A DNA stretch of 64,000 nt from Balneola sp. (GTDB lineage Bacteria > Bacteroidota > Rhodothermia > Balneolales > Balneolaceae), in the NCBI GenBank assembly GCA_965230095.1, contig OZ245946.1, positions 517,210 through 581,209 on the forward strand. The letters run 5' to 3'. A program made the position numbers and the translations under genes. Below are positions 10,415 through 21,100 of the stretch, one piece after another (within the stretch, counting starts at the first letter, position 1; each line of letters begins with the position of its first letter). The notes below the pieces were generated by a model, which was not told where the DNA came from, ran no database searches, and saw nothing but the letters and a program-made list of their open reading frames with translations.

Positions 10415-11431
10415 ATGAAAACAAGAGTTCATTACATATTATTTATAGTTTTATTTGTTGCTTGTGAAACAACAAAAGACGACACAACTATTACCGATTT
10501 TGGACGGGTGTTTGTATCAAGTAATACACAATCCAAAATTGGGATTTTTGACTTTTCAGATATAAATAACAAAACTACTGTTGAATATATCACAACCAGT
10601 GATGATGCTGAAGGTATATATTATGACAATAATAGAGATATTGTTTACCAGGCAGACAGAGAGAATAACAGGCTGAACGCCTACTCTAGATTATCTACTA
10701 ATGCACCTGGTTCTGGAATATTACCTAGTGCTATAAGTACTTCAGATTTTACAAATCCTAGAGGACTAACTTCAGACGATAACATTGCCCTGGTGGTTCA
10801 GGCTGGAACGGAAGAAAACGGACAGCAAAATGGTTTATTTATGTACGATATAAGTGCTGCTGAAATTACTTTGAGAAATCAGTTTTCTACAAGCTTTCCA
10901 CTATGGGATATTCAATTGGTAGGCAATACTTTATATGCTGCTCAGGATGAATCAGACAGTTTAGCTATTTTTAATAATTTTTTTGGACGTACTGACGGGG
11001 CAATAATCCCGGATTTTAAAATAAAACTGGATAATGTAGAACATATTCAGGGACTATTTTATAATCTGGAAAATGATTTAATGATAATTACAGATGTTGG
11101 TGATGTTTCGTCTGGTATTGGGGATGGGCAGATCGTTCTAATTGAAGATTTTAATCTTAAAACCTCAGCCGCGCTTCAGGAAGTTGAAAAAACCATTCCA
11201 AGTGGGGAAATGATATTCATTAAAGGAGCTAATACTCAATTACAAAACCCGGTGGATGTAATCTATCATAGTGCTGCTAATCGTATTATAGTGGCAGAAC
11301 GCTCTACAAATGGTGGAATGTTTTTTTCTTTTGAGTATCCGGTTCAAACGGATGATATTAATGAATTCAATTCGGCACCGCTATATTCTATTGAGTATAA
11401 TGGAATTTCGAATCTTTATATAGATCAGTAA
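10415..11431 (+). CDS. Lipoprotein, probable beta-propeller (paralog 1)
   Basis: Lipobox FVAC; repeated blade-like motifs; clear paralog of the next gene. Confidence 0.75.
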   Translation: MKTRVHYILFIVLFVACETTKDDTTITDFGRVFVSSNTQSKIGIFDFSDINNKTTVEYITTSDDAEGIYYDNNRDIVYQADRENNRLNAYSRLSTNAPGSGILPSAISTSDFTNPRGLTSDDNIALVVQAGTEENGQQNGLFMYDISAAEITLRNQFSTSFPLWDIQLVGNTLYAAQDESDSLAIFNNFFGRTDGAIIPDFKIKLDNVEHIQGLFYNLENDLMIITDVGDVSSGIGDGQIVLIEDFNLKTSAALQEVEKTIPSGEMIFIKGANTQLQNPVDVIYHSAANRIIVAERSTNGGMFFSFEYPVQTDDINEFNSAPLYSIEYNGISNLYIDQ

Positions 11432-11521: not shown

Positions 11522-12526
11522 ATGAAAAAAACAAAAATCTCATCACTATTAATTTTTTTATTTGGGATAGTATTCATCTCGTGTGGTAGTAGCAATGACG
11601 ACGACGATATTACCACAGAATTCGGAGCAGTTTTTGTTTCAAGTAACACAACTCCGGTAGTTGGTATATATGATTTCTCTTCTACAACAGTAAGTTCAAT
11701 TCAGTTTGGGTTAAGTTCTGCTGATTCAGACGGAATCATTTACAGCTCTGTTTCTGATGAATTATATATTGCATCCAGAACTAATAACAGAGTGGAAGTA
11801 TACACTGACCTTACGAAAACTGAAGCGTCTCTAAATATAGAGCTGGCTTTTAGCAGTAGTCAGGATTTTGCCAATGCACGTAAATTAGCCGCTTCAGGGA
11901 GCAAAGTTGTTGTTTCACAGGATGCGTCCGATGCCAATAACCAAACGAATGCATATTATGTCTACGAAGTAGGAGATAACTCAGCTACACTGGTAAACAC
12001 CTATACAGCTGATATCAACCTTTGGGATATTCAATTTTCAGGAAATGCATTATATGCTATTCAGGATAATTCAGATACTCTTGTTGTATATAATAATTTT
12101 TTGAGCAATTCAGATGGGTTAGTTTCTCCTGATACGAAAGTTCAAATAGAAGGAATTGTAAGAACTCATGCATTACATTATAATGCTTCAAGCGACATTA
12201 TGTTTTTAAGTGATATTGGTGATGCGGGAAGTTCAACAGACGGAGCTATTCATGTAATTTCAGATTTTAGTTCTAAATTTGCAACAGCCGGAAATAATGG
12301 TACTATATCTACCTCTGATCAAATAGTAATTGAAGGGAGTAATACACAGCTAGGAAATCCTGTTGGAATTGCTTATAACAGTGAGACTCAAAAAATCTAT
12401 GTAGCAGAAAGAGCTGTGGACGGAGGAAAACTTCTTGAATTCGATTTACCATCTTCAAATGGGAATGCCTCGCCTACTTATTCACAAAACTTTGCAGGAG
12501 CAGCAGCTGTTTACTTTGCTAATTAA
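11522..12526 (+). CDS. Lipoprotein, probable beta-propeller (paralog 2)
   Basis: Lipobox FISC; shares FVSSNT, LWDIQ, DVG/DIG, NTQL-NPV and VAER motifs with 10415..11431. Confidence 0.75.
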   Translation: MKKTKISSLLIFLFGIVFISCGSSNDDDDITTEFGAVFVSSNTTPVVGIYDFSSTTVSSIQFGLSSADSDGIIYSSVSDELYIASRTNNRVEVYTDLTKTEASLNIELAFSSSQDFANARKLAASGSKVVVSQDASDANNQTNAYYVYEVGDNSATLVNTYTADINLWDIQFSGNALYAIQDNSDTLVVYNNFLSNSDGLVSPDTKVQIEGIVRTHALHYNASSDIMFLSDIGDAGSSTDGAIHVISDFSSKFATAGNNGTISTSDQIVIEGSNTQLGNPVGIAYNSETQKIYVAERAVDGGKLLEFDLPSSNGNASPTYSQNFAGAAAVYFAN

Positions 12527-12555: not shown

Positions 12556-12581
12556 AAAGGATGCTTTTGGCATCCTTTTTT
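12556..12581. terminator. Bidirectional intrinsic terminator
   Basis: AAAGGATGC-TTTTG-GCATCCTTT followed by T run, between convergent genes. Confidence 0.8.
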
Positions 12582-12583
12582 AT

Positions 12584-13795
12584 TTAAAAGAAGGAAGATA
12601 ATTGTATTCTGAAAGCATATTCGGATAGATCAAAATCTCCCTGATCTGAAAAAGAAGCTTTTAGTAATAAATTAGGGGCAAATTTATAACCAAAAACAGC
12701 TGATAAACGCGATACATTTTCGTCCCATTTTATCGATTCATTTGTTTCAGGGTCATCTGCATCAATAAACAACAGATGTTCTGCTCTTAAAGCAATGTAA
12801 CTTCCGGTAAATCCGGGCGGTTCATACTTAAAATCTATATTTCCTGATATATTGCTAAGATTATAGTTGCAAAGCCTGCCGCCACAATTTGTGTTGAACT
12901 GGTTTGAGATAAAACCTGTTGTTTTCCAATTTGAGTAAATAGCTTCTCCAATTATTTCGAAATATGTAAAAGCTACTTTGACATCAGTACCAAGCAACAG
13001 TTGATAAAATTTCTGAAAGCTTTCATCTGAACGAACTGAATTATTGAGAGGATCTCCTTGCATAAAATTCCCGAAACTAAAGGAAAAACCTTGCTCCCAA
13101 GTCACAAAGGGTCTGTAGAATAACCTGGATGTAAATGCTAAATTTGGAAGGGAAGAGCGATCCCGAATCGTGATAGGAGTACCATTCGTAAGTGCTGCAT
13201 CAATGAATAACTTATCTTTACTAAGCTCAATCTGGGTGCCAATTCCTGTTACATAGCCTGCGAAATAGATCGAAGGTAACCCAACATCTCCTTCTTCATA
13301 TTCTGCATTAGTATTATTACCTGCTTCCGGCCAATAACCTCTTATATCAGAAATATTTGTGAAATAGCTATATCCCAAAGGATGTTGAACAAAAACCCGG
13401 TCAGTAGATAGCTGTCGTTTTGTGTAAAAACCAAAAGGGGAGATAAATCTTCCGGCTTTTATGATATAGGAATTTTCGGGGTTGTCCCAGGTTATACTGG
13501 CAAGAGAAATTCGTGGTGAATTTAGCTTCCCACTACCCCATGTGTCTAGTTGAATTCTGCTTTCAAAGAAAATTACATCACTTATTGGAGCAAAAAGAAA
13601 TGCATTCAGCTGTGTTACTGAGAGATTTGGCGCTTCAAATTCCCGGGGGATACCATTTGTAATAAATCGGGACTGTTCACCGCCTGCTGATAATTCCAGA
13701 TCTACCGATCCATTCAATTGTAATTGAGAATAGGCAGATTGTGAAATAAAGAAAAAGCAAAAAAGTAAGCTTATCAGAAGTTTTGGTATTTTCAT
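12584..13795 (-). CDS. Outer-membrane beta-barrel protein (paralog A)
   Basis: Sec signal, amphipathic strands, KAGRFISPFG motif, C-terminal Phe (SSFF). Confidence 0.75.
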   Translation of the reverse strand: MKIPKLLISLLFCFFFISQSAYSQLQLNGSVDLELSAGGEQSRFITNGIPREFEAPNLSVTQLNAFLFAPISDVIFFESRIQLDTWGSGKLNSPRISLASITWDNPENSYIIKAGRFISPFGFYTKRQLSTDRVFVQHPLGYSYFTNISDIRGYWPEAGNNTNAEYEEGDVGLPSIYFAGYVTGIGTQIELSKDKLFIDAALTNGTPITIRDRSSLPNLAFTSRLFYRPFVTWEQGFSFSFGNFMQGDPLNNSVRSDESFQKFYQLLLGTDVKVAFTYFEIIGEAIYSNWKTTGFISNQFNTNCGGRLCNYNLSNISGNIDFKYEPPGFTGSYIALRAEHLLFIDADDPETNESIKWDENVSRLSAVFGYKFAPNLLLKASFSDQGDFDLSEYAFRIQLSSFF

Positions 13796-13804
13796 GGTAA
13801 ATAT

Positions 13805-14377
13805 TTATTCATTGTTTAAGCTTGTGAATATGGCTGAATTTACAGCTGGATTCCTCCCTAAAGCCTCTTTAAGCGAAACAAAATGTGCAACTTCTATTGG
13901 GAATATACTTCCCATTATAAGTTTTGCATTAGGGCCCTGAAGGTCTCGAATGGAACTGGTGAAATATGAATTTGCAGCTTCCATTTCTAACTGCATAGCA
14001 AGTAAAATAGCCTCTTCTTCAGAACTAACATCATTAATTCTTTGATCAGGCCCAAAATCATTAACAGATACAGAATCACCATCAGCTTGTATGAGAATAT
14101 CATTGAAGAGCTGTAAATGCTCAATATGATGATTTTTATAGTCTCTTGCTCTACTGACAAGCGTTTGATTAGTTATAATTCCTGATTCTGCTGCTGCATT
14201 ATAGGTTTGAATTGCTATAGCTTCTCGTTCAGCTGCTTGATTAATAACCAGATTGTCTCCGGTTAGTTCTGTTTCAGAATTACTTCCTACTCCTGCTCCT
14301 GTACTACAACCAATTAAAGTAGCACCTGAAGTTAAGCCTAGTATGGGTAGTGATCTTAAGAATGATTTTCTATTCAT
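13805..14377 (-). CDS. Ferritin-like di-iron lipoprotein with Tat-type signal
   Basis: MNRKSFL...LIGC; four-helix ligand pattern EREA / HIEH / EMEA / EVAH. Confidence 0.75.
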   Translation of the reverse strand: MNRKSFLRSLPILGLTSGATLIGCSTGAGVGSNSETELTGDNLVINQAAEREAIAIQTYNAAAESGIITNQTLVSRARDYKNHHIEHLQLFNDILIQADGDSVSVNDFGPDQRINDVSSEEEAILLAMQLEMEAANSYFTSSIRDLQGPNAKLIMGSIFPIEVAHFVSLKEALGRNPAVNSAIFTSLNNE

Positions 14378-14419
14378 ATGTGATCCTCTTTTAATTCTCT
14401 CTTAAATAGTTTCTAATTA

Positions 14420-15631
14420 CTAGAAAAATGCTGAAACGGTACTTCTGAATGTATAAAACGAAGAATCAAAAGGGGTTTGTTCGCTTAATGTAATTTTAAG
14501 TTCTACGTTTCTGCCTAGTTTATGCCCAAAAGCAGCTGAAACTCTTCCAATATCCTTATCCCACTCATTGTTTAAGTAAATACTTTCACCTTTACCATTC
14601 CCTATAAAATTGAGGTAATCTAGTCTTAAAGCAAGATAACTTCCGGGCACTGAAGTAGGTTCAAATCTAAAATCAATATTGGTACCTAAGTTGGAAAAGT
14701 TTTCTTCCTGAAAAATGTTGGAAGCCCCAACCGTTTGAAAACTTTCATCTCCAAAAACTGGAACATACCAGTAAGAATAGATAGCTTCTGCGGTTATTTG
14801 CCAATACCCAAGTCCATATTTAATATCAGTACCAATAATACTCTGACGATACCTTTCTAATGGATTAAACGGCCTGAATGCATTATTAACACTACCTTCT
14901 CTCATAAAGCTGCCATAAGCTGCAGTAAACCCTACATCCCATTTAATGTCAGGTTTTATAGTGAATCGAGCTAGAAATGCTGCATTTGCAAGGTTTGTAT
15001 AATTTTTATCAGAGGCAGGAGCTACAGAAGTGATGCCTAATTTTAAATTTGTTTTGTCTTCTGTAATATCCCATTCAAAAAGTCCTCCTGTTGCATAACC
15101 TCCAAAATAAATAGATGTAAGGCCTACATCATTTGAGGTGTAAGATCCACCTTCTCCAGCCAGCGGCCAATATCCCCGTTGATCAGATATATTTACAAAA
15201 TAGGAGTAGGAAAGAGGGAGATCATGAAAGTTACGATCAAGTAATAAAGTTTTATTTGAATAAAAACCTACAGGGCTAATAAACCTACCTGCTTTTATTG
15301 AATAGTCATTTTTGGGATCTGCCCAGGTAATATTTGCGAGTGTGAAATAGGGGTCTTTAAGCTCGCCTGTTCCCCAAGTGTCTGTTTGTAATCTTGCTTC
15401 AAAGAAAAAAGTGTCATTTATAGGAGCAAAGATAAAAAGATTAACCTGAGGAATTCTAAAGTGAGCATATCTGTATTCACTTTCGATACTATTTTTTACA
15501 AAACTAGAACTCTCACCGCCGACTCTCGCCCCAAAATCAATAGATCCATTGAATTGAATTTGAGACAGAGCTGTATCTGTAAACAAAATTAATAAACCAA
15601 AAAAAGACAGTATTGAGATTTTTTTAATCAT
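14420..15631 (-). CDS. Outer-membrane beta-barrel protein (paralog B)
   Basis: Sec signal, KAGRFISPVG motif, C-terminal Phe (SAFF); same length (403 aa) as paralog A. Confidence 0.75.
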   Translation of the reverse strand: MIKKISILSFFGLLILFTDTALSQIQFNGSIDFGARVGGESSSFVKNSIESEYRYAHFRIPQVNLFIFAPINDTFFFEARLQTDTWGTGELKDPYFTLANITWADPKNDYSIKAGRFISPVGFYSNKTLLLDRNFHDLPLSYSYFVNISDQRGYWPLAGEGGSYTSNDVGLTSIYFGGYATGGLFEWDITEDKTNLKLGITSVAPASDKNYTNLANAAFLARFTIKPDIKWDVGFTAAYGSFMREGSVNNAFRPFNPLERYRQSIIGTDIKYGLGYWQITAEAIYSYWYVPVFGDESFQTVGASNIFQEENFSNLGTNIDFRFEPTSVPGSYLALRLDYLNFIGNGKGESIYLNNEWDKDIGRVSAAFGHKLGRNVELKITLSEQTPFDSSFYTFRSTVSAFF

Positions 15632-17315
15632 AAAGTACTTCAGAGACTATAACACTTCCTTTAAATCCTTTTAGTTCCTGTGCTCCAACCTCTCTGAAAC
15701 TCAGATCTTCAACTTCGTGGCTATATTGACTGATTAATTCTTTTGGTATTAAGATTTGAGCGTCTTTTGCTGAAGAGCATAATCGTGCACACAGGTTTAC
15801 TTCGGAACCAATTACAGTATAATCCATACGTTCTTTAGCTCCCATATTTCCCAGAATCACTTTTCCGAAATTGATGCCTATGCCAATGCCATCAAAAAAC
15901 TCATTGAGTTCATTATCCGATTTAAAATCTTTTTGAATTTCAATGGCCGAATTAATGGCTTCTTTAAGTGAATCAGTACCGGCAAACAATGCGATCAAAG
16001 AATCACCTACATATTTATCAATTGACCCATTATGCAAAAGTACAGTGTCAGCTTGTTTACCTAAAGTTTTATTAAGCTTTTCCAGGAATTCTTCAGGGGT
16101 AGATGTTGAAATCTTAGAGGTAGAGCCTCTGATATCTGTGAACAATATTGCAAGTTCCTGAAAAGAAGCTTTTTCATCTAAATCAACAGTTTGTTTTTCC
16201 TGGATCATCTTTAAAGTATGATCACCCACGTATTTTGTAAGTGCAAAACGTTCACGTAAACCCTGAAGCATTTCATTAAACGTTTTTGTGAGAATCCCTA
16301 CTTCGTCTCGGGATTTTGATTGTACCTCAACATCCAAATCACCTTCTCTTACTCTAAGCATGGCTTTTGTAAGTCTTTGTATAGGTCCTGAAAAAGCACC
16401 GGCAATGATGAAGGCAATGGGTACAATTACCAGAAAGCTGGAAGCAGCAATTAATAAAATATTTTTCTGGATAGTACCAAGTATCTCAAATTGTACATCT
16501 ACAGGAACATAAGCTATATAATAAGCTCTTTCTTCGGTTCCCAACGGACTTATAAATGCAAGTACTTCTTTATCATTTAAGCTAGTTCTGAACGGTGTGC
16601 TTATCACTAAATTTGAAGTAAGTGAGTCAATTAATCCCATCTTTGATTTCACAAACTGGCTGTAAACAGACATGTTCTCATTAACATTAGAATAAGCAAT
16701 GGGTGTTTCTTCCAAAAACATGATTACATCAAGGGGGGTATTCTGTTTAAGTAAGCGTGCTTCCGAATCCTGAAATTTAGTACCCAAAGTTGTTGTTCCG
16801 ATTATAGAATTTCCGGCATAAATCGGAATAGTTACAATCTGAAAAAGCTCACCTTCAACAGCCCATAATCTTGGCCATTCTATATTTAAAGGTGGCTCAA
16901 TTCCATTTAAAGCGTCCTGAATACTCCTTCTTGATGAAATGTCAGTTCCTGCTCTTTCTTCATTATTAAGCCATGCAAGTACACTTCCTTCATCATTTGT
17001 AACTACAAAAAGATCCGTTTTAATGAAAAGAGAAAATTCGTTTACAGTAAAATTTACAGATGCAGGATCATTCAATTCCACATTAGCTTTGTATGTAGAG
17101 TTTTCACTGATTAAGTAGGAAGATTCGACCAATCGATCATACTGAAGTGTTTGCTGCTGCTTGAAAAATCCCTGCAACTGGCTGAAGTCAAGAACAATAT
17201 CTTCATTCAGCGTCTTTGAAAATGTATTGTTTACAGCAGTTAATACCGTAACCAAAACGATCAGAGTTAGTCCAATCAGAAGGATAATTAATTTGGTGCT
17301 TATTCTTAAACTCAA
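15624..17315 (-). CDS. Membrane class III adenylate/guanylate cyclase with periplasmic sensor and HAMP domain
   Basis: Two TM helices, HAMP (PIQRLTKAM...DEVGILTKTFNEM), LFTDIRGST, IDKYVGD, DYTVIGSEVNLCARL; Lys/Asp specificity residues suggest ATP. Confidence 0.9.
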   Translation of the reverse strand: MSLRISTKLIILLIGLTLIVLVTVLTAVNNTFSKTLNEDIVLDFSQLQGFFKQQQTLQYDRLVESSYLISENSTYKANVELNDPASVNFTVNEFSLFIKTDLFVVTNDEGSVLAWLNNEERAGTDISSRRSIQDALNGIEPPLNIEWPRLWAVEGELFQIVTIPIYAGNSIIGTTTLGTKFQDSEARLLKQNTPLDVIMFLEETPIAYSNVNENMSVYSQFVKSKMGLIDSLTSNLVISTPFRTSLNDKEVLAFISPLGTEERAYYIAYVPVDVQFEILGTIQKNILLIAASSFLVIVPIAFIIAGAFSGPIQRLTKAMLRVREGDLDVEVQSKSRDEVGILTKTFNEMLQGLRERFALTKYVGDHTLKMIQEKQTVDLDEKASFQELAILFTDIRGSTSKISTSTPEEFLEKLNKTLGKQADTVLLHNGSIDKYVGDSLIALFAGTDSLKEAINSAIEIQKDFKSDNELNEFFDGIGIGINFGKVILGNMGAKERMDYTVIGSEVNLCARLCSSAKDAQILIPKELISQYSHEVEDLSFREVGAQELKGFKGSVIVSEVLYD

Positions 17316-17317
17316 GA

Positions 17318-18076
17318 TCAGTTAGCTAAATTAAAATTTGTCTCTGTAGTATTATCGGACTGTAATGATACTGTTCTGGATATGATATCAAAAGATGGGT
17401 TATATACTCTGATCTCATAATCGCCTTCAGGAAGGTCAGATAGTTCGTATGTCCCGTCCTCATTTAGTCGTGTGAAATAAGGAGTATCTAGACTAAGTAT
17501 AGTCGCTTTCATTTGTGAATGAACATCACAAAATAATGTAATAGGACCTATTCCGGTAACTTTCCACTTAGGCGCTTCAATTTGTTTAGAAAAAATATCT
17601 CCCGGTTGGCGCCTTCCAATATTAAATTTAGATCCGGGTGTAAGGGAAAATACATTATGAAAGAAGGGGTCATCATTTACAAATTGTACAACTGTACCCA
17701 CTGTTACAGGAGTTACATTAGGTAGGAAAGTGGCATCTTTTTGTTCAATAATAACCGGTTCACCACTCATATCATCCGTGATGGAATAAGAAAGAGGATG
17801 AGCACTTACAATTGTATTTTTAAACTTAGAACCTTCTTCTGAATTCGAGTTAACAGAAGAGGATGACCCAGAGTTTCCTCTGCTTCTATAACTTGAGCCA
17901 CGAAATTGTCTTCTGGTTGTAGATTGCTCAGGAACAGTAACAGTTCCCATTATGGTTCCGGAGATAGTATCAACGGAGTAAGTAAAAGAAAAATCGGGTG
18001 AAATCTCATCAGCACTTTTAAATGAAAAAGCTGATACAAATAAAGCCACCGAAAAACCTAAAATATATTTTCTCAT
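17318..18076 (-). CDS. Secreted cupredoxin-like protein with carboxypeptidase-regulatory-like domain
   Basis: Signal peptide; N-x-D-P-x-x-H-N-V-F-S and F-C-D-V-H-S-Q-M give a His/Cys/His/Met type-1 copper set; C-terminal DGTYELSDLPEGDYEIRVY. Confidence 0.8.
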   Translation of the reverse strand: MRKYILGFSVALFVSAFSFKSADEISPDFSFTYSVDTISGTIMGTVTVPEQSTTRRQFRGSSYRSRGNSGSSSSVNSNSEEGSKFKNTIVSAHPLSYSITDDMSGEPVIIEQKDATFLPNVTPVTVGTVVQFVNDDPFFHNVFSLTPGSKFNIGRRQPGDIFSKQIEAPKWKVTGIGPITLFCDVHSQMKATILSLDTPYFTRLNEDGTYELSDLPEGDYEIRVYNPSFDIISRTVSLQSDNTTETNFNLAN

Positions 18077-18146
18077 TTTTTATCTCTGAATACGTAAGCA
18101 ACTTAATACAAGATTGGAAGGAATATAGTAAAACAGGACAGTTTTT

Positions 18147-18707
18147 CTAAAGTCCCTGCAAACTGATTTTGGTAGTGTCGTCAGGAACTAAATAAGGATT
18201 TACCGTATCATAAACTACCCAAGCATCTCTGAAAAACCTTTTAACCAGCTTAGAAAATGATAGAGCCCGATCTCTGGAATGGAAATCACCTACATGAACT
18301 CTGTAATAAGGAGTTTTGAAAAAAGTATAGGTTTCAGCCTGGTAACCTGTAATCGTAGTATCAGACCAAGCTCTGAAACGCGAAGCAATTGTGTCGGCTT
18401 CAAATACATTCTGCCCAGAGTAAACCTGAATTCGGTATCCTTTAGTTAGGTCCACTTCCACTTCCTTCTCTTTTTTAATTTCGGAGTAGATATTTGGAAT
18501 TTCATTATTATTTGAAGAATAAGTGTCCGATAAACTGCTTATTAAAACAGCTTCGCTATCAGATATTGCAGGGTCTTCATTTACTGATTCTTTATTTTCC
18601 GAATCATTATAAACTGTATCTGAAGTAGTTGAATGAGATGATGTACATGCTCCGAAAAATCCGGATAACAGGAAAATAACTAACGGTATTTTTGTAAATG
18701 ATTTCAT
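18147..18707 (-). CDS. SPOR-domain lipoprotein
   Basis: Start moved to ATG 18707 (TAATG overlap with upstream stop); lipobox FGAC; GYRIQVY and PYYRVHVGDF...FRDAWVV. Confidence 0.8.
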   Translation of the reverse strand: MKSFTKIPLVIFLLSGFFGACTSSHSTTSDTVYNDSENKESVNEDPAISDSEAVLISSLSDTYSSNNNEIPNIYSEIKKEKEVEVDLTKGYRIQVYSGQNVFEADTIASRFRAWSDTTITGYQAETYTFFKTPYYRVHVGDFHSRDRALSFSKLVKRFFRDAWVVYDTVNPYLVPDDTTKISLQGL

Positions 18708-19573
18708 TAAAAACCAACGGGATGCCATGTAGTTTTGGTCTCCTGAAAATCAATAACAAAATACGGGCTTGCAGAATTTTCCTCATACCAGTCAGTAATA
18801 TCTTTTCTTACCACTCTTTTTATATTGTTTGAAGATAATTCATCAATTGTAACTTTCGTTTCTTTATCCAGCTGATCAGTATATAAAATGGAATTAACAT
18901 CCATATGAGAACTAAAATGTTCTACCAGTTCTAACCTTTTACCGGTAAGAATATTCACAACTCCACCTGGCACATCAGAAGAATTTAAAACCTCTGCAAA
19001 ACTAATTGATGGAAGGGGATATTGCTCCGAAGCGTGTACTACACAGGTATTGCCACCGGCTATGATCGGAGCAATTACTGACACTAAACCCAGTAAAGGA
19101 CTGTTTTCTGGTGCGAGTACAGAAACAACTCCTGTTGGTTCCAGAATACTGAAATTAAAATGAGCACTTGCTACCGGATTTACAGAACCAAATACCTGTT
19201 GGTATTTGTCAGTCCATCCGGCGTAATAAATTAACCGGTCTATGGACGCATTTATATCGGCATTTGCTTCTTCTTTTGTAAAACCGATTTGTCCCAGTTC
19301 CTTCACAAACTGATCTCTTCGGTTTTCCATCATTTCACCGATTCTGTAAAGAATCTGCCCTTTGTTGTATGATGTTCTTGAACTCCATCCCTTAAAAGCA
19401 GCACGAGCAGCTAAAACGGCATCTCTGAAATCTTTTCGGGTACAACGACATGCGTTAGCCAGAAAATCTCCTTCACTATCAAAAACTTTATAATAGTGAC
19501 CGGATTCACTACGCGGGAACGAGCCACCAACGTAGGTTTTGTATGTTTTTTGCACTTCTATTCTTTCACTCAT
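18707..19573 (-). CDS. Short aldehyde dehydrogenase-family protein lacking the catalytic domain
   Basis: ALDH N-terminal NAD-binding fold (EPTGVVSVLAP, GVVNILTG) but only 288 aa; no ELGGK or catalytic Cys motif. Confidence 0.8.
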   Translation of the reverse strand: MSERIEVQKTYKTYVGGSFPRSESGHYYKVFDSEGDFLANACRCTRKDFRDAVLAARAAFKGWSSRTSYNKGQILYRIGEMMENRRDQFVKELGQIGFTKEEANADINASIDRLIYYAGWTDKYQQVFGSVNPVASAHFNFSILEPTGVVSVLAPENSPLLGLVSVIAPIIAGGNTCVVHASEQYPLPSISFAEVLNSSDVPGGVVNILTGKRLELVEHFSSHMDVNSILYTDQLDKETKVTIDELSSNNIKRVVRKDITDWYEENSASPYFVIDFQETKTTWHPVGF

Positions 19574-19582
19574 AATAATTCC

Positions 19583-21100
19583 TTATTTCAAATTCAGATA
19601 AGCAGACAATCCATGTAATCCGCCTTCACGACCAACCCCACTTTCTTTATAACCTCCAAAAGGAGAGGTAGGATCAAATTTATTGTAGGTATTAGCCCAG
19701 ACCACGCCTGATCTCAGTTCACTTCCGACTTTAAATATCTTTGAACCTTTATCTGTCCAGACACCACCGGCTAAACCAAAAGGGGTATTATTTGCTTTTT
19801 CAATAGCTTCATCAGCGGTACGGAATGATTGAACAGTGAGAACAGGACCAAAAATTTCTTCCTGAACCACTCGGTTTGATTGGGAAACATTGGTAAATAA
19901 AGTAGGGCGGATATAATATCCGTTTTCAGGAACAGAACATTTACTTTGATAAACCTGGGCTCCTTCTTCCACACCTAATTCAAGATAGCTGTTTACTCTT
20001 TCAAACTGTTCTTTGGAATTGATAGCACCGATATCAGTATTTTTATCAAGTGGATCGCCAACAATCAAGGTTTCCAATCTGTCTTTTAATTTCGCAATCA
20101 CTTTATCAGCTATGTTTTCCTGAACCAGCAATCTAGAACCTGCACAACAAACATGTCCCTGATTGAAATAGATGGCATTTATAATACCTTCCACAGCCTG
20201 ATCAATTGGTGCATCTTCAAATAAAATTAAAGCGCCTTTACCACCAAGTTCCAATGTGTATTTTTTGTCGGTTCCTGCAAGTGATTTTTGAATGATCTTA
20301 CCAACATTGGTAGAGCCCGTAAACGCAATCTTATCAATATCTTTATGATTAACGATCTCTGCACCGGTCTGTCCTGCACCGGTTACTATATTTACCACTC
20401 CGTCAGGTAAGCCAGCATCTTTAACCAGTTCGGCAAACATCATAGCAGTTAGTGAAGTGGTTTCAGCAGGTTTAAGAACCACTGTATTTCCACAGGCAAG
20501 GGCAGGGGCAATTTTCCACGCTAACATCAGTAAAGGAAAATTCCATGGAATGATCTGTCCACAAACTCCCAAAGGCTCCGGTTTTTTTCCGGGGAACGCA
20601 TATTCCAGTTTATCAGCCCACCCTGCATAGTAGAAGAAATAAGCAGCGGCTAGTGGAATATCCACATCTCTGGATTCACGAATTGGTTTTCCCCCATCAA
20701 TTGATTCAGCTATTGCAAACTCTCTGGCTCGTTCTTGCAGCATTCTTGCTATTCTGTAGATGTATTTTCCACGAGAACTCGGGTTCAAGTCTGACCACTC
20801 CCCTTTAAACGCTTTCCGGGCAGCTTTAACGGCTTTATCAACATCTTTCTGAGTGGCTTCAGCAAATTGAGTGATTTCTTCTTTGCTGGAAGGATTAACA
20901 CTTTTGAAATATCGATCTTTGGATGGTTTTACGAACTTTCCTCCGATAAAGAGCTCATATTTGTCTTTTATCTCAAGATTAGCAGAACTTTCAGGAGCTT
21001 CTGAATACTCCCACAATGAAGCAAAGTCTAATTTTGAATTAGGAGATGTTGGTTTGTAAGTGGTCTCTTTTGTTTTTGTTTCAGACATAATAGACTTCAA
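19583..21100 (-). CDS. NAD-dependent aldehyde dehydrogenase
   Basis: IIPWNFPL, KPAE, FTGST, LELGGK, GHVCCAG (catalytic Cys), EEIFGPV, PFGGYKESG. Confidence 0.95.
   Translation of the reverse strand: MKSIMSETKTKETTYKPTSPNSKLDFASLWEYSEAPESSANLEIKDKYELFIGGKFVKPSKDRYFKSVNPSSKEEITQFAEATQKDVDKAVKAARKAFKGEWSDLNPSSRGKYIYRIARMLQERAREFAIAESIDGGKPIRESRDVDIPLAAAYFFYYAGWADKLEYAFPGKKPEPLGVCGQIIPWNFPLLMLAWKIAPALACGNTVVLKPAETTSLTAMMFAELVKDAGLPDGVVNIVTGAGQTGAEIVNHKDIDKIAFTGSTNVGKIIQKSLAGTDKKYTLELGGKGALILFEDAPIDQAVEGIINAIYFNQGHVCCAGSRLLVQENIADKVIAKLKDRLETLIVGDPLDKNTDIGAINSKEQFERVNSYLELGVEEGAQVYQSKCSVPENGYYIRPTLFTNVSQSNRVVQEEIFGPVLTVQSFRTADEAIEKANNTPFGLAGGVWTDKGSKIFKVGSELRSGVVWANTYNKFDPTSPFGGYKESGVGREGGLHGLSAYLNLK

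Follow-up and report, generated by a model that had tools for sequence, protein, structure and literature searches.

To our knowledge, the sensing of redox state or oxidants in the periplasm is understood for few systems, none of which has a blue-copper protein as sensing partner. The closest functional analogue of the locus described here is the YfiBNR (TpbB) system of Pseudomonas aeruginosa, which is likewise built in three layers, joining a protein of the outer membrane and a soluble one of the periplasm to an inner-membrane sensor with a periplasmic and a HAMP domain making a nucleotide second messenger, and in which the periplasmic protein controls the enzyme (PMC2837407, PMC3375315, PMC4655355). 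The present locus lies in a stretch of 64,000 nucleotides (nt) of the genome of Balneola sp. (GenBank assembly GCA_965230095.1, contig OZ245946.1, positions 517,210 to 581,209), further referred to as the window. It consists of five genes, coding for a blue-copper protein (cupredoxin), a membrane-bound sensor adenylate cyclase, two porin-like barrels (A and B) and, encoded between the barrels, a ferritin-like lipoprotein. With moderate confidence, these genes are proposed to encode a self-contained signalling cassette that spans the cell envelope, with the blue-copper protein as the periplasmic partner of the sensor and cyclic AMP (cAMP) as the output. A first-pass annotation, made from the window sequence, knew of no characterised system of this composition; the literature agreed with it, as no paper was found on the combination of a cupredoxin, a dCache-HAMP cyclase, and an outer-membrane barrel.

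Conservation of the gene set

The conservation of the genes as a unit, which the first-pass annotation had proposed to examine by gene neighbourhood, was found in genome comparisons. Three homologues of barrel A from unrelated assemblies all occurred in units made up of cupredoxin, cyclase, barrel, and ferritin-like genes, with flanking genes matching those of the window in one of them only. Scanning species-representative genomes with the barrel profile retrieved 26 true loci, belonging to Balneolaceae, Calditrichota, and metagenome-assembled genomes (MAGs) related to Chlorobiota. The cupredoxin-cyclase-barrel order was kept in all but two of these loci, and the ferritin-like gene was also present in most. 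One of the two exceptions (L024) starts at a contig end, and the other (L023) lacks a cyclase gene. The latter locus, from a Calditrichales MAG, contains the cupredoxin, barrel, and ferritin-like genes without a cyclase gene between them, as well as diverged cupredoxin motifs (HDVFS and CDIHPGM); it could represent gene decay or an artefact of assembly.

Scanning with the cupredoxin profile yielded 80 loci in Acidobacteriota, Gemmatimonadota, Salinibacteraceae, Saprospiraceae, Latescibacterota, and other groups. Fifty-nine of these loci were flanked by at least 3 kb on either side; among them, a homologous sensor was found within 5 kb in 50, a barrel in 30, and both in 27; the ferritin-like gene was present in nine and a cyclase output in 19. 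Judged from gene content, the cupredoxin-sensor-barrel trio is conserved, with unrelated flanking genes, in Balneolaceae, Calditrichota, Chlorobiota-related lineages, Salinibacteraceae, Gemmatimonadota, and Acidobacteriota. Seen in one window alone, the gene order might still reflect unrelated neighbours without a common function. This explanation has next to no probability, given that the same order recurs in several phyla between unrelated flanks, that fusions of the genes exist (see below), and that the ferritin-like gene lies inside the module, beside the cupredoxin gene, in all four genomes in which both positions are known.

The genome of Balneola sp., a single contig of 3.45 Mb, contains one copy each of the cupredoxin and ferritin-like genes, and the barrel family occurs at this locus only. 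Some relatives possess another cupredoxin-cyclase-barrel triad, paralogous to the first and devoid of both the Arg-rich cupredoxin motif described below and a ferritin-like gene (L112, in genome G005, and L113; Table 1). It was located about 15 kb from the first triad in three congeneric genomes and is absent from the present genome.

Sensor adenylate cyclase and alternative outputs

The second gene had been annotated as a class III cyclase with a periplasmic sensor and a HAMP domain, and profile searches agreed. The protein is composed of a first transmembrane segment (TM1; residues ~8-29), a periplasmic domain, probably of the dCache_3 type, of about 255 amino acids (aa; residues ~30-285), a second transmembrane segment (TM2), a HAMP domain (residues 304-355; Pfam E 3e-14), and a cyclase domain (Guanylate_cyc, PF00211, residues 383-554; E 2.3e-14, 53.8 bits against a cut-off of 21.9). 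The window protein itself gave no match with dCache_3 (PF14827) at E <= 0.1; ten of 16 orthologues did match this family, the best with an E value of 3.2e-09. Six residues of the cyclase domain were invariant in 16 orthologues, namely D394 and D438, which we take to be the metal-binding Asp residues, K434 and T500, presumably the adenine-specifying pair of the IIIb type, and N507 and R511, presumably involved in the transition state. Given the invariance of every class III residue for catalysis and adenine specificity, the protein is apparently a competent class IIIb adenylate cyclase, and cAMP is the most likely output, as had been supposed in the first pass. A Thr residue at the second adenine-specifying position is regarded as predictive of bicarbonate regulation (PMC3383692). 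Five cNMP_binding proteins are encoded in the genome, a predicted repertoire with which it can read cAMP.

The modular nature of the system, also claimed beforehand, became apparent from the sensors associated with the cupredoxin in other genomes, where the same sensor domain carries other outputs. These sensors were HisKA/HATPase histidine kinases, hybrid kinases with PAS and REC domains, and one HD_5 (HD-GYP-type) enzyme, the kinases matching dCache_3 too. When HAMP and output domains were trimmed off, the outside domains of the cyclases and of the other sensors aligned with an hhalign probability of 99.6% (E 5.7e-25; 267 columns). By this profile alignment, all of them belong to a single family of sensor domains, linked with a cupredoxin on the one hand and with several outputs on the other. 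A cultured strain of the Acidobacteriaceae had an OmpR-type regulator within the unit. Furthermore, sensor and barrel formed a single open reading frame (ORF) of about 1000 aa in three Gemmatimonadota loci (Table 1) and in the database proteins P0318 (kinase) and P0325 (cyclase), with a signal-peptide-like hydrophobic stretch at the sensor-barrel junction. As predicted proteins, these single ORFs argue for a functional link between sensor and barrel.

The dCache_3 domain could also bind a small molecule on its own, in which case the barrel, the cupredoxin, and the ferritin-like protein would constitute a periplasmic uptake and oxidation pathway for that same compound, encoded next to its regulator for the sake of co-expression and without a role in sensing. 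Such an arrangement would fit the classical role of dCache domains as small-molecule receptors (Pfam descriptions; general knowledge), the strong conservation of the porin inner loop, the redox enzymes adjoining relatives of the cupredoxin, and the accessory genes, which differ between lineages. It is nevertheless considered rather unlikely. No recognisable catalytic oxidoreductase accompanies the trio in most lineages. The association persists through four output types and extends to fusions of the sensor with the barrel, which would be unusual for a regulator and its target. In addition, the spacing of 2 nt between the cupredoxin and sensor genes suggests joint production of the two proteins, in line with the preferred reading of the cupredoxin as a partner of the sensor.

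Cupredoxin

The first gene had been described as coding for a secreted protein with a His ... Cys-x2-His-x2-Met motif, an assignment strengthened by both alignment and structure prediction. The protein carries a Sec-type signal peptide, and its type-1 copper ligand set (H140, C183, H186, and M189) was invariant in an alignment of 40 homologues. The CxxHxxM spacing was present in all 79+ homologues checked, a set partly selected by this same motif. No cupredoxin family of Pfam matched the protein at E <= 0.1, the only match being CarboxypepD_reg/PEGA at residues 197-251. As neither Pfam nor NCBIfam assigned a family to the barrels or recognised a cupredoxin in the first gene product, the folds of the barrels and of the cupredoxin were taken from AlphaFold and Foldseek. 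For the cupredoxin, the AlphaFold model had a predicted local distance difference test (pLDDT) score of 79.5, and the best Foldseek matches were amicyanin, plastocyanin, pseudoazurin, and the cupredoxin domain of NirK (probability 1.00; E 3e-07 to 1e-05). A profile search of the PDB gave a weak match with plastocyanin (E 9e-04). In the model, the cupredoxin domain appears to be inserted within a CarboxypepD_reg beta-sandwich, since a strand at residues 40-47 was modelled with very high confidence and the Pfam match begins at position 27 of the sandwich only.

Distant proteins with the same cupredoxin-plus-sandwich composition were found in other Rhodothermia. One of these (L114) has as neighbours a di-haem peroxidase (CCP_MauG), a multicopper oxidase, and a cytochrome-c/propeller protein; the gene of another (L115) immediately precedes those of cytochrome oxidase subunits I and III. 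These neighbours fit an electron-carrier ancestry of the cupredoxin. Considering its predicted fold, the invariant His/Cys/His/Met set, and the oxidase and peroxidase neighbours of its distant relatives, the cupredoxin looks redox-active.

Between the two folded parts of the protein, a linker modelled with low confidence contains a strictly conserved Arg-rich motif, RxFRGxxYRxR (residues 56-66; window positions 17879-17911), which may be a docking peptide. The motif is confined to the clade whose sensor is the present cyclase; it was found neither in the Acidobacteriota and Gemmatimonadota versions nor in the paralogous triad of Balneolaceae. A conserved linker of this kind could point to an RcsF-type sensor of outer-membrane integrity, in which the disordered Arg-/Ser-rich linker of the cupredoxin would thread into or dock on the barrel, and damage to the outer membrane would free the cupredoxin to act on the sensor. 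In this clade, the sensor gene invariably has a barrel gene next to it, and the sensor-barrel fusions could be understood in the same way. Yet, such a function is very unlikely, as it would leave the invariant copper site without a role, would not hold for the versions and the triad devoid of the motif, and would have to be fulfilled by a cupredoxin that has no lipid anchor.

Porin-like barrels

The description of the third and fifth genes as two barrels of 403 aa sharing KAGRFISP and a terminal Phe was accurate. Both proteins end in Phe-Phe, and they share 42% identity from end to end (E 2e-111). Barrel A possesses a signal peptide and was modelled as a porin-like structure (pLDDT 86; predicted template-modelling score 0.83), the Foldseek matches of which included OmpF, OmpM1, Omp35, and OprP (E ~1e-12; target-normalised template-modelling scores of 0.62-0.70) at a sequence identity of about 10%. 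Ten distant barrel relatives gave only sub-threshold matches with OMP_b-brl, KdgM, or SlpA_C. Within a loop, the barrels carry a strongly conserved motif, GRF[IV]SPxGFY. A link to DUF3034 barrels (PF11231), drawn in the first pass by way of a similar proteobacterial gene cluster, was not supported by sequence: the window barrels gave no match with this family at E <= 0.1, ten distant relatives gave none at E <= 1, and none was found in the whole genome, which is a weak negative, as 14 control genomes gave none either.

In a phylogenetic tree of the barrels, the A clade extended over the Balneolaceae and the B clade was restricted to the genus Balneola. Because these clades are sisters (support 93/78) and the B clade is genus-restricted, barrel B is, on this phylogeny, a tandem duplicate of barrel A that arose at the genus level, and two distinct roles for the barrels are not supported by the data. 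Several Balneola genomes possess the cupredoxin, the cyclase, and barrel B only, the last following the cyclase, a form also carried by a cultured strain (L028); in two of these genomes, the cyclase is 94-96% identical to that of the window. The sequences of the relatives without barrel A and the ferritin-like gene simply diverge past the cyclase stop codon, and the junction reveals no deletion mechanism.

Ferritin-like lipoprotein

The fourth gene had been taken to encode an exported di-iron four-helix lipoprotein, a description supported for the fold and the putative lipid anchor and not for the di-iron site. The protein matched Ferritin_2 (PF13668) with 25.6 bits against a cut-off of 24.7, and PF13668 was precomputed for 17 of 19 close homologues. 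The lipobox Cys24, preceded by L-I-G, was invariant. The signal region of the window protein and of the other Balneola copies contains RKxFL, and thus Arg-Lys instead of Arg-Arg, whereas most orthologues outside the genus have a twin-arginine motif, RRxF[LI]K. The protein is best described as a predicted lipoprotein with a twin-arginine translocation (Tat)-type signal. The invariant candidate ligands of a binuclear site are E52, H84-x2-H87, E131, and E162-x2-H165. Helix 2 displayed HxxH in all 20 orthologues, where di-iron proteins have ExxH, so that the predicted set (E / HxxH / E / ExxH) departs from the E / ExxH / E / ExxH pattern typical of that class. Because a profile search of the PDB gave only weak matches (best E 0.007), to the rubrerythrin-like 2fzf and the encapsulated ferritin 5n5e over helices 3-4, no close solved model was at hand. 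Moreover, RvFeMP-1 and DRB0118 of Deinococcus radiodurans, so far the sole characterised representatives of PF13668, are Zn/Mg metabolite phosphatases and have another ligand set (PMC11616004), so that iron cannot be assumed.

The ferritin-like gene was present in six of the 71 Balneolaceae genomes sampled, and no such gene was found anywhere in three genomes of the same genus that are 99-100% complete. It is also absent from the Acidobacteriota and Gemmatimonadota versions of the module and from Balneola genomes very similar to the present one, in which the cupredoxin, the cyclase, and one barrel are retained. Its place as a core part of the system, assumed at the outset, was rejected on the grounds of these distributions. 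By its occurrence, it belongs exclusively to the module, which can nevertheless do without it, and is thus an optional accessory.

The third His residue gained in the metal site of this protein, together with the invariance of all four copper ligands of the cupredoxin, could point to a sensor of copper availability. The cupredoxin would then report its apo or copper-loaded state, the barrel would be an entry route for copper, the His-rich ferritin-like protein would buffer or deliver the metal, and cAMP would tune copper uptake or tolerance. That most loci lack a redox enzyme, the module standing alone, would be in keeping with such a function. This explanation was assigned a low probability, as type-1 sites bind copper tightly and are typical of electron carriers rather than metal sensors (general knowledge), relatives of the cupredoxin adjoin oxidases and peroxidases, the conserved residues of the supposed copper entry route comprise no His, Met, or Cys, and copper efflux or uptake genes were not linked to the module at three compared homologous loci.

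Genomic organization

The five ORFs are co-oriented on the minus strand and tightly packed over positions 12584-18076 (Table 1), with intergenic spacings, derived from the ORF coordinates, of 2, -8, 42, and 9 nt in gene order. The same span and spacings, as well as the bidirectional terminator that closes the putative operon, had been reported in the first pass. The TTG start of the cyclase gene is backed by orthologue alignment. The terminator, located between the barrel B gene and a convergent gene, has a GC-containing stem of 9-10 bp, with T runs on both strands. In the spacer upstream of the cupredoxin gene, the terminator scan found no terminator-like hairpin, and promoter-like matches near this spacer were no commoner than in shuffled sequence.

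Table 1 Features of the cupredoxin-cyclase-barrel locus of Balneola sp. and of related loci (positions refer to the window unless a locus is named)
Feature	Position	Strand	Remarks
Cupredoxin	17318-18076	-	252 aa
Sensor adenylate cyclase	15624-17315	-	563 aa; TTG start
Barrel A	14420-15631	-	403 aa; start overlaps cyclase stop by 8 nt
Ferritin-like lipoprotein	13805-14377	-	190 aa
Barrel B	12584-13795	-	403 aa
Hairpin terminator	12556-12578	both	Terminator scan and sequence; shared with convergent plus-strand gene
Spacer 5' of cupredoxin gene	18077-18146	-	70 nt; follows SPOR gene; possible promoter region
Tandem lipoprotein gene 1	10415-11431	+	
Tandem lipoprotein gene 2	11522-12526	+	
Aldehyde dehydrogenase, Aldedh-like, and SPOR genes	18147-21100	-	
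Sensor-barrel single ORF	L060:7663-10659		Gemmatimonadota
Sensor-barrel single ORF	L062:7595-10573		Gemmatimonadota
Sensor-barrel single ORF	L084:5466-8429		Gemmatimonadota
Unit without cyclase gene	L023:2038-4611		Calditrichales MAG
Paralogous triad	L112:6022-9750		Genome G005
Paralogous triad	L113:3156-6872		
Distant cupredoxin-plus-sandwich protein and neighbours	L114:3326-10748		Other Rhodothermia
Distant cupredoxin-plus-sandwich protein and neighbours	L115:5655-9006		Other Rhodothermia

On the other side of the terminator, two tandem lipoprotein genes converge on the operon. Their products are paralogues (36% identical; E 1e-73) that gave weak NHL/arylesterase matches and are probably beta-propeller lipoproteins. 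Three minus-strand genes are located upstream of the operon. The first codes for an aldehyde dehydrogenase of full length (505 aa), the second for an Aldedh-like protein of half that size (288 aa), and the third, the start of which overlaps the second by 22 nt, for a lipoprotein with a SPOR domain. This trio was syntenic with the cupredoxin operon throughout the Balneolaceae and nowhere else. The DeoC, aldehyde-dehydrogenase, and SPOR genes were rejected as general members of the unit, since their synteny is limited to the Balneolaceae; read-through may nevertheless occur within the genus.

Proposed mechanism

In the proposed cassette, a porin-like barrel in the outer membrane would admit the stimulus or anchor the complex. 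The Sec-exported blue-copper protein would serve the dCache_3 domain of the inner-membrane transducer as a redox-active partner (co-sensor) in the periplasm, and the state of this partner, most likely Cu(I)/Cu(II), would be relayed via TM2 and the HAMP domain to a homodimeric class IIIb adenylate cyclase. The resulting cAMP would be read by the cNMP-binding proteins encoded in the genome. The exported ferritin-like lipoprotein would be a lineage-specific add-on, probably linking the cupredoxin to a metal or to a small oxidant, and barrel B would be a recent duplicate able to replace barrel A. The genes and their predicted folds, the conserved copper-ligand and catalytic residues, and the exchange of outputs within a conserved trio were observed, whereas a physical association of the cupredoxin with the sensor, the kind of stimulus involved (redox, oxidant, or copper), and the sense in which the cyclase is regulated are inferred.

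Several points weigh against this mechanism. First, dCache domains usually bind small molecules themselves. Second, the barrel was recognisable in only about half of the cupredoxin-sensor loci, and it may be an accessory rather than a core component. Third, its conserved residues hold no obvious metal ligands (His, Met, or Cys). Fourth, the topology of the sensor-barrel fusions is puzzling, as a cytoplasmic domain and an outer-membrane barrel are placed on one chain. Fifth, the 80 loci of the cupredoxin scan were picked by patterns of the copper-site motif, so that ligand conservation among them is partly by construction. Lastly, the predicted operon could, in Balneolaceae, reach upstream into the SPOR and aldehyde-dehydrogenase genes.

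A bolder extension of the mechanism, put forward tentatively and open to considerable doubt, would be a widespread and hitherto unrecognised form of extracytoplasmic redox sensing, in which a blue-copper protein serves membrane receptors of many phyla as a detachable redox probe. In the present lineage, the oxidation state of this probe would be set by the exported ferritin-like metalloprotein, reacting with O2, H2O2, or NO that enters via a dedicated porin. The dCache_3 domain would convert this state into cAMP and, elsewhere, into phosphorylation or turnover of cyclic di-GMP (c-di-GMP).

Significance

The locus probably represents a so far unstudied kind of extracytoplasmic redox or metal sensing. 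The cassette is compact enough for reconstruction in Escherichia coli, and it is widespread, as the cupredoxin search returned 1805 homologues and the barrel profile search 1651 cluster representatives, 486 of which were below 1e-30, and its single sensor domain is plugged into at least four output chemistries. If the cupredoxin is indeed a co-sensor, it would constitute a new class of input for cAMP, two-component, and c-di-GMP signalling, and a role could be assigned to a large porin-like family for which Pfam has no model. The genus Balneola offers a natural experiment in this respect, as its closely related members differ in the presence of the ferritin-like accessory and in the number of pores (one or two), which allows direct comparison.

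Comparison with known systems

Despite the layout shared with YfiBNR, no homology exists between the two systems: YfiB is an OmpA/Pal-like lipoprotein and not a porin, YfiR has neither a cupredoxin fold nor a metal site, and the output is c-di-GMP, made by a GGDEF domain (PMC2837407, PMC3375315, PMC4655355). Accordingly, Pfam and NCBIfam searches of the five proteins revealed no YfiR-type repressor, OmpA/Pal-like YfiB, or GGDEF domain, and the likeness is one of layout only.

Each of the proteins resembles a known family as well and departs from it. The ferritin-like lipoprotein shares with PF13668 proteins the four-helix ferritin-like domain and a predicted binuclear site contributed by all four helices. 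The ligands of RvFeMP-1 are Glu51, Glu90, His93, Glu132, Asp135, and Asp162 (PMC11616004), against E / HxxH / E / ExxH here. Unlike the characterised members, the present protein has a Tat-type signal and a predicted lipid anchor, measures 190 aa, and occurs only inside this module. The sensor is similar to HAMP-linked class IIIb membrane cyclases in having two transmembrane segments, a HAMP domain, and the complete Asp/Asp, Lys/Thr, and Asn/Arg pairs; it differs from them by its large outside domain, probably of the dCache_3 type, common to kinases and HD-GYP enzymes, and by its obligate linkage to a cupredoxin and a barrel. The barrels have the fold of 16-stranded porins such as OmpF, Omp35, OmpM1, and OprP, including the long internal loop after the early strands, the signal peptide, and the C-terminal aromatic residue. 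They are set apart by an identity of only about 10%, the lack of a Pfam porin family, the GRF[IV]SPxGFY loop, and a dedicated linkage to a sensor, with which they are sometimes fused. Finally, the cupredoxin is comparable with amicyanin, plastocyanin, and pseudoazurin in its predicted fold and its Sec export to the periplasm, and its His ... Cys-x2-His-x2-Met spacing is presumably that of amicyanin. Unlike these type-1 copper carriers, it falls below the Pfam cupredoxin models, is apparently situated inside a CarboxypepD_reg sandwich, possesses an Arg-rich linker, and is encoded together with a sensor instead of a dehydrogenase or a photosystem.

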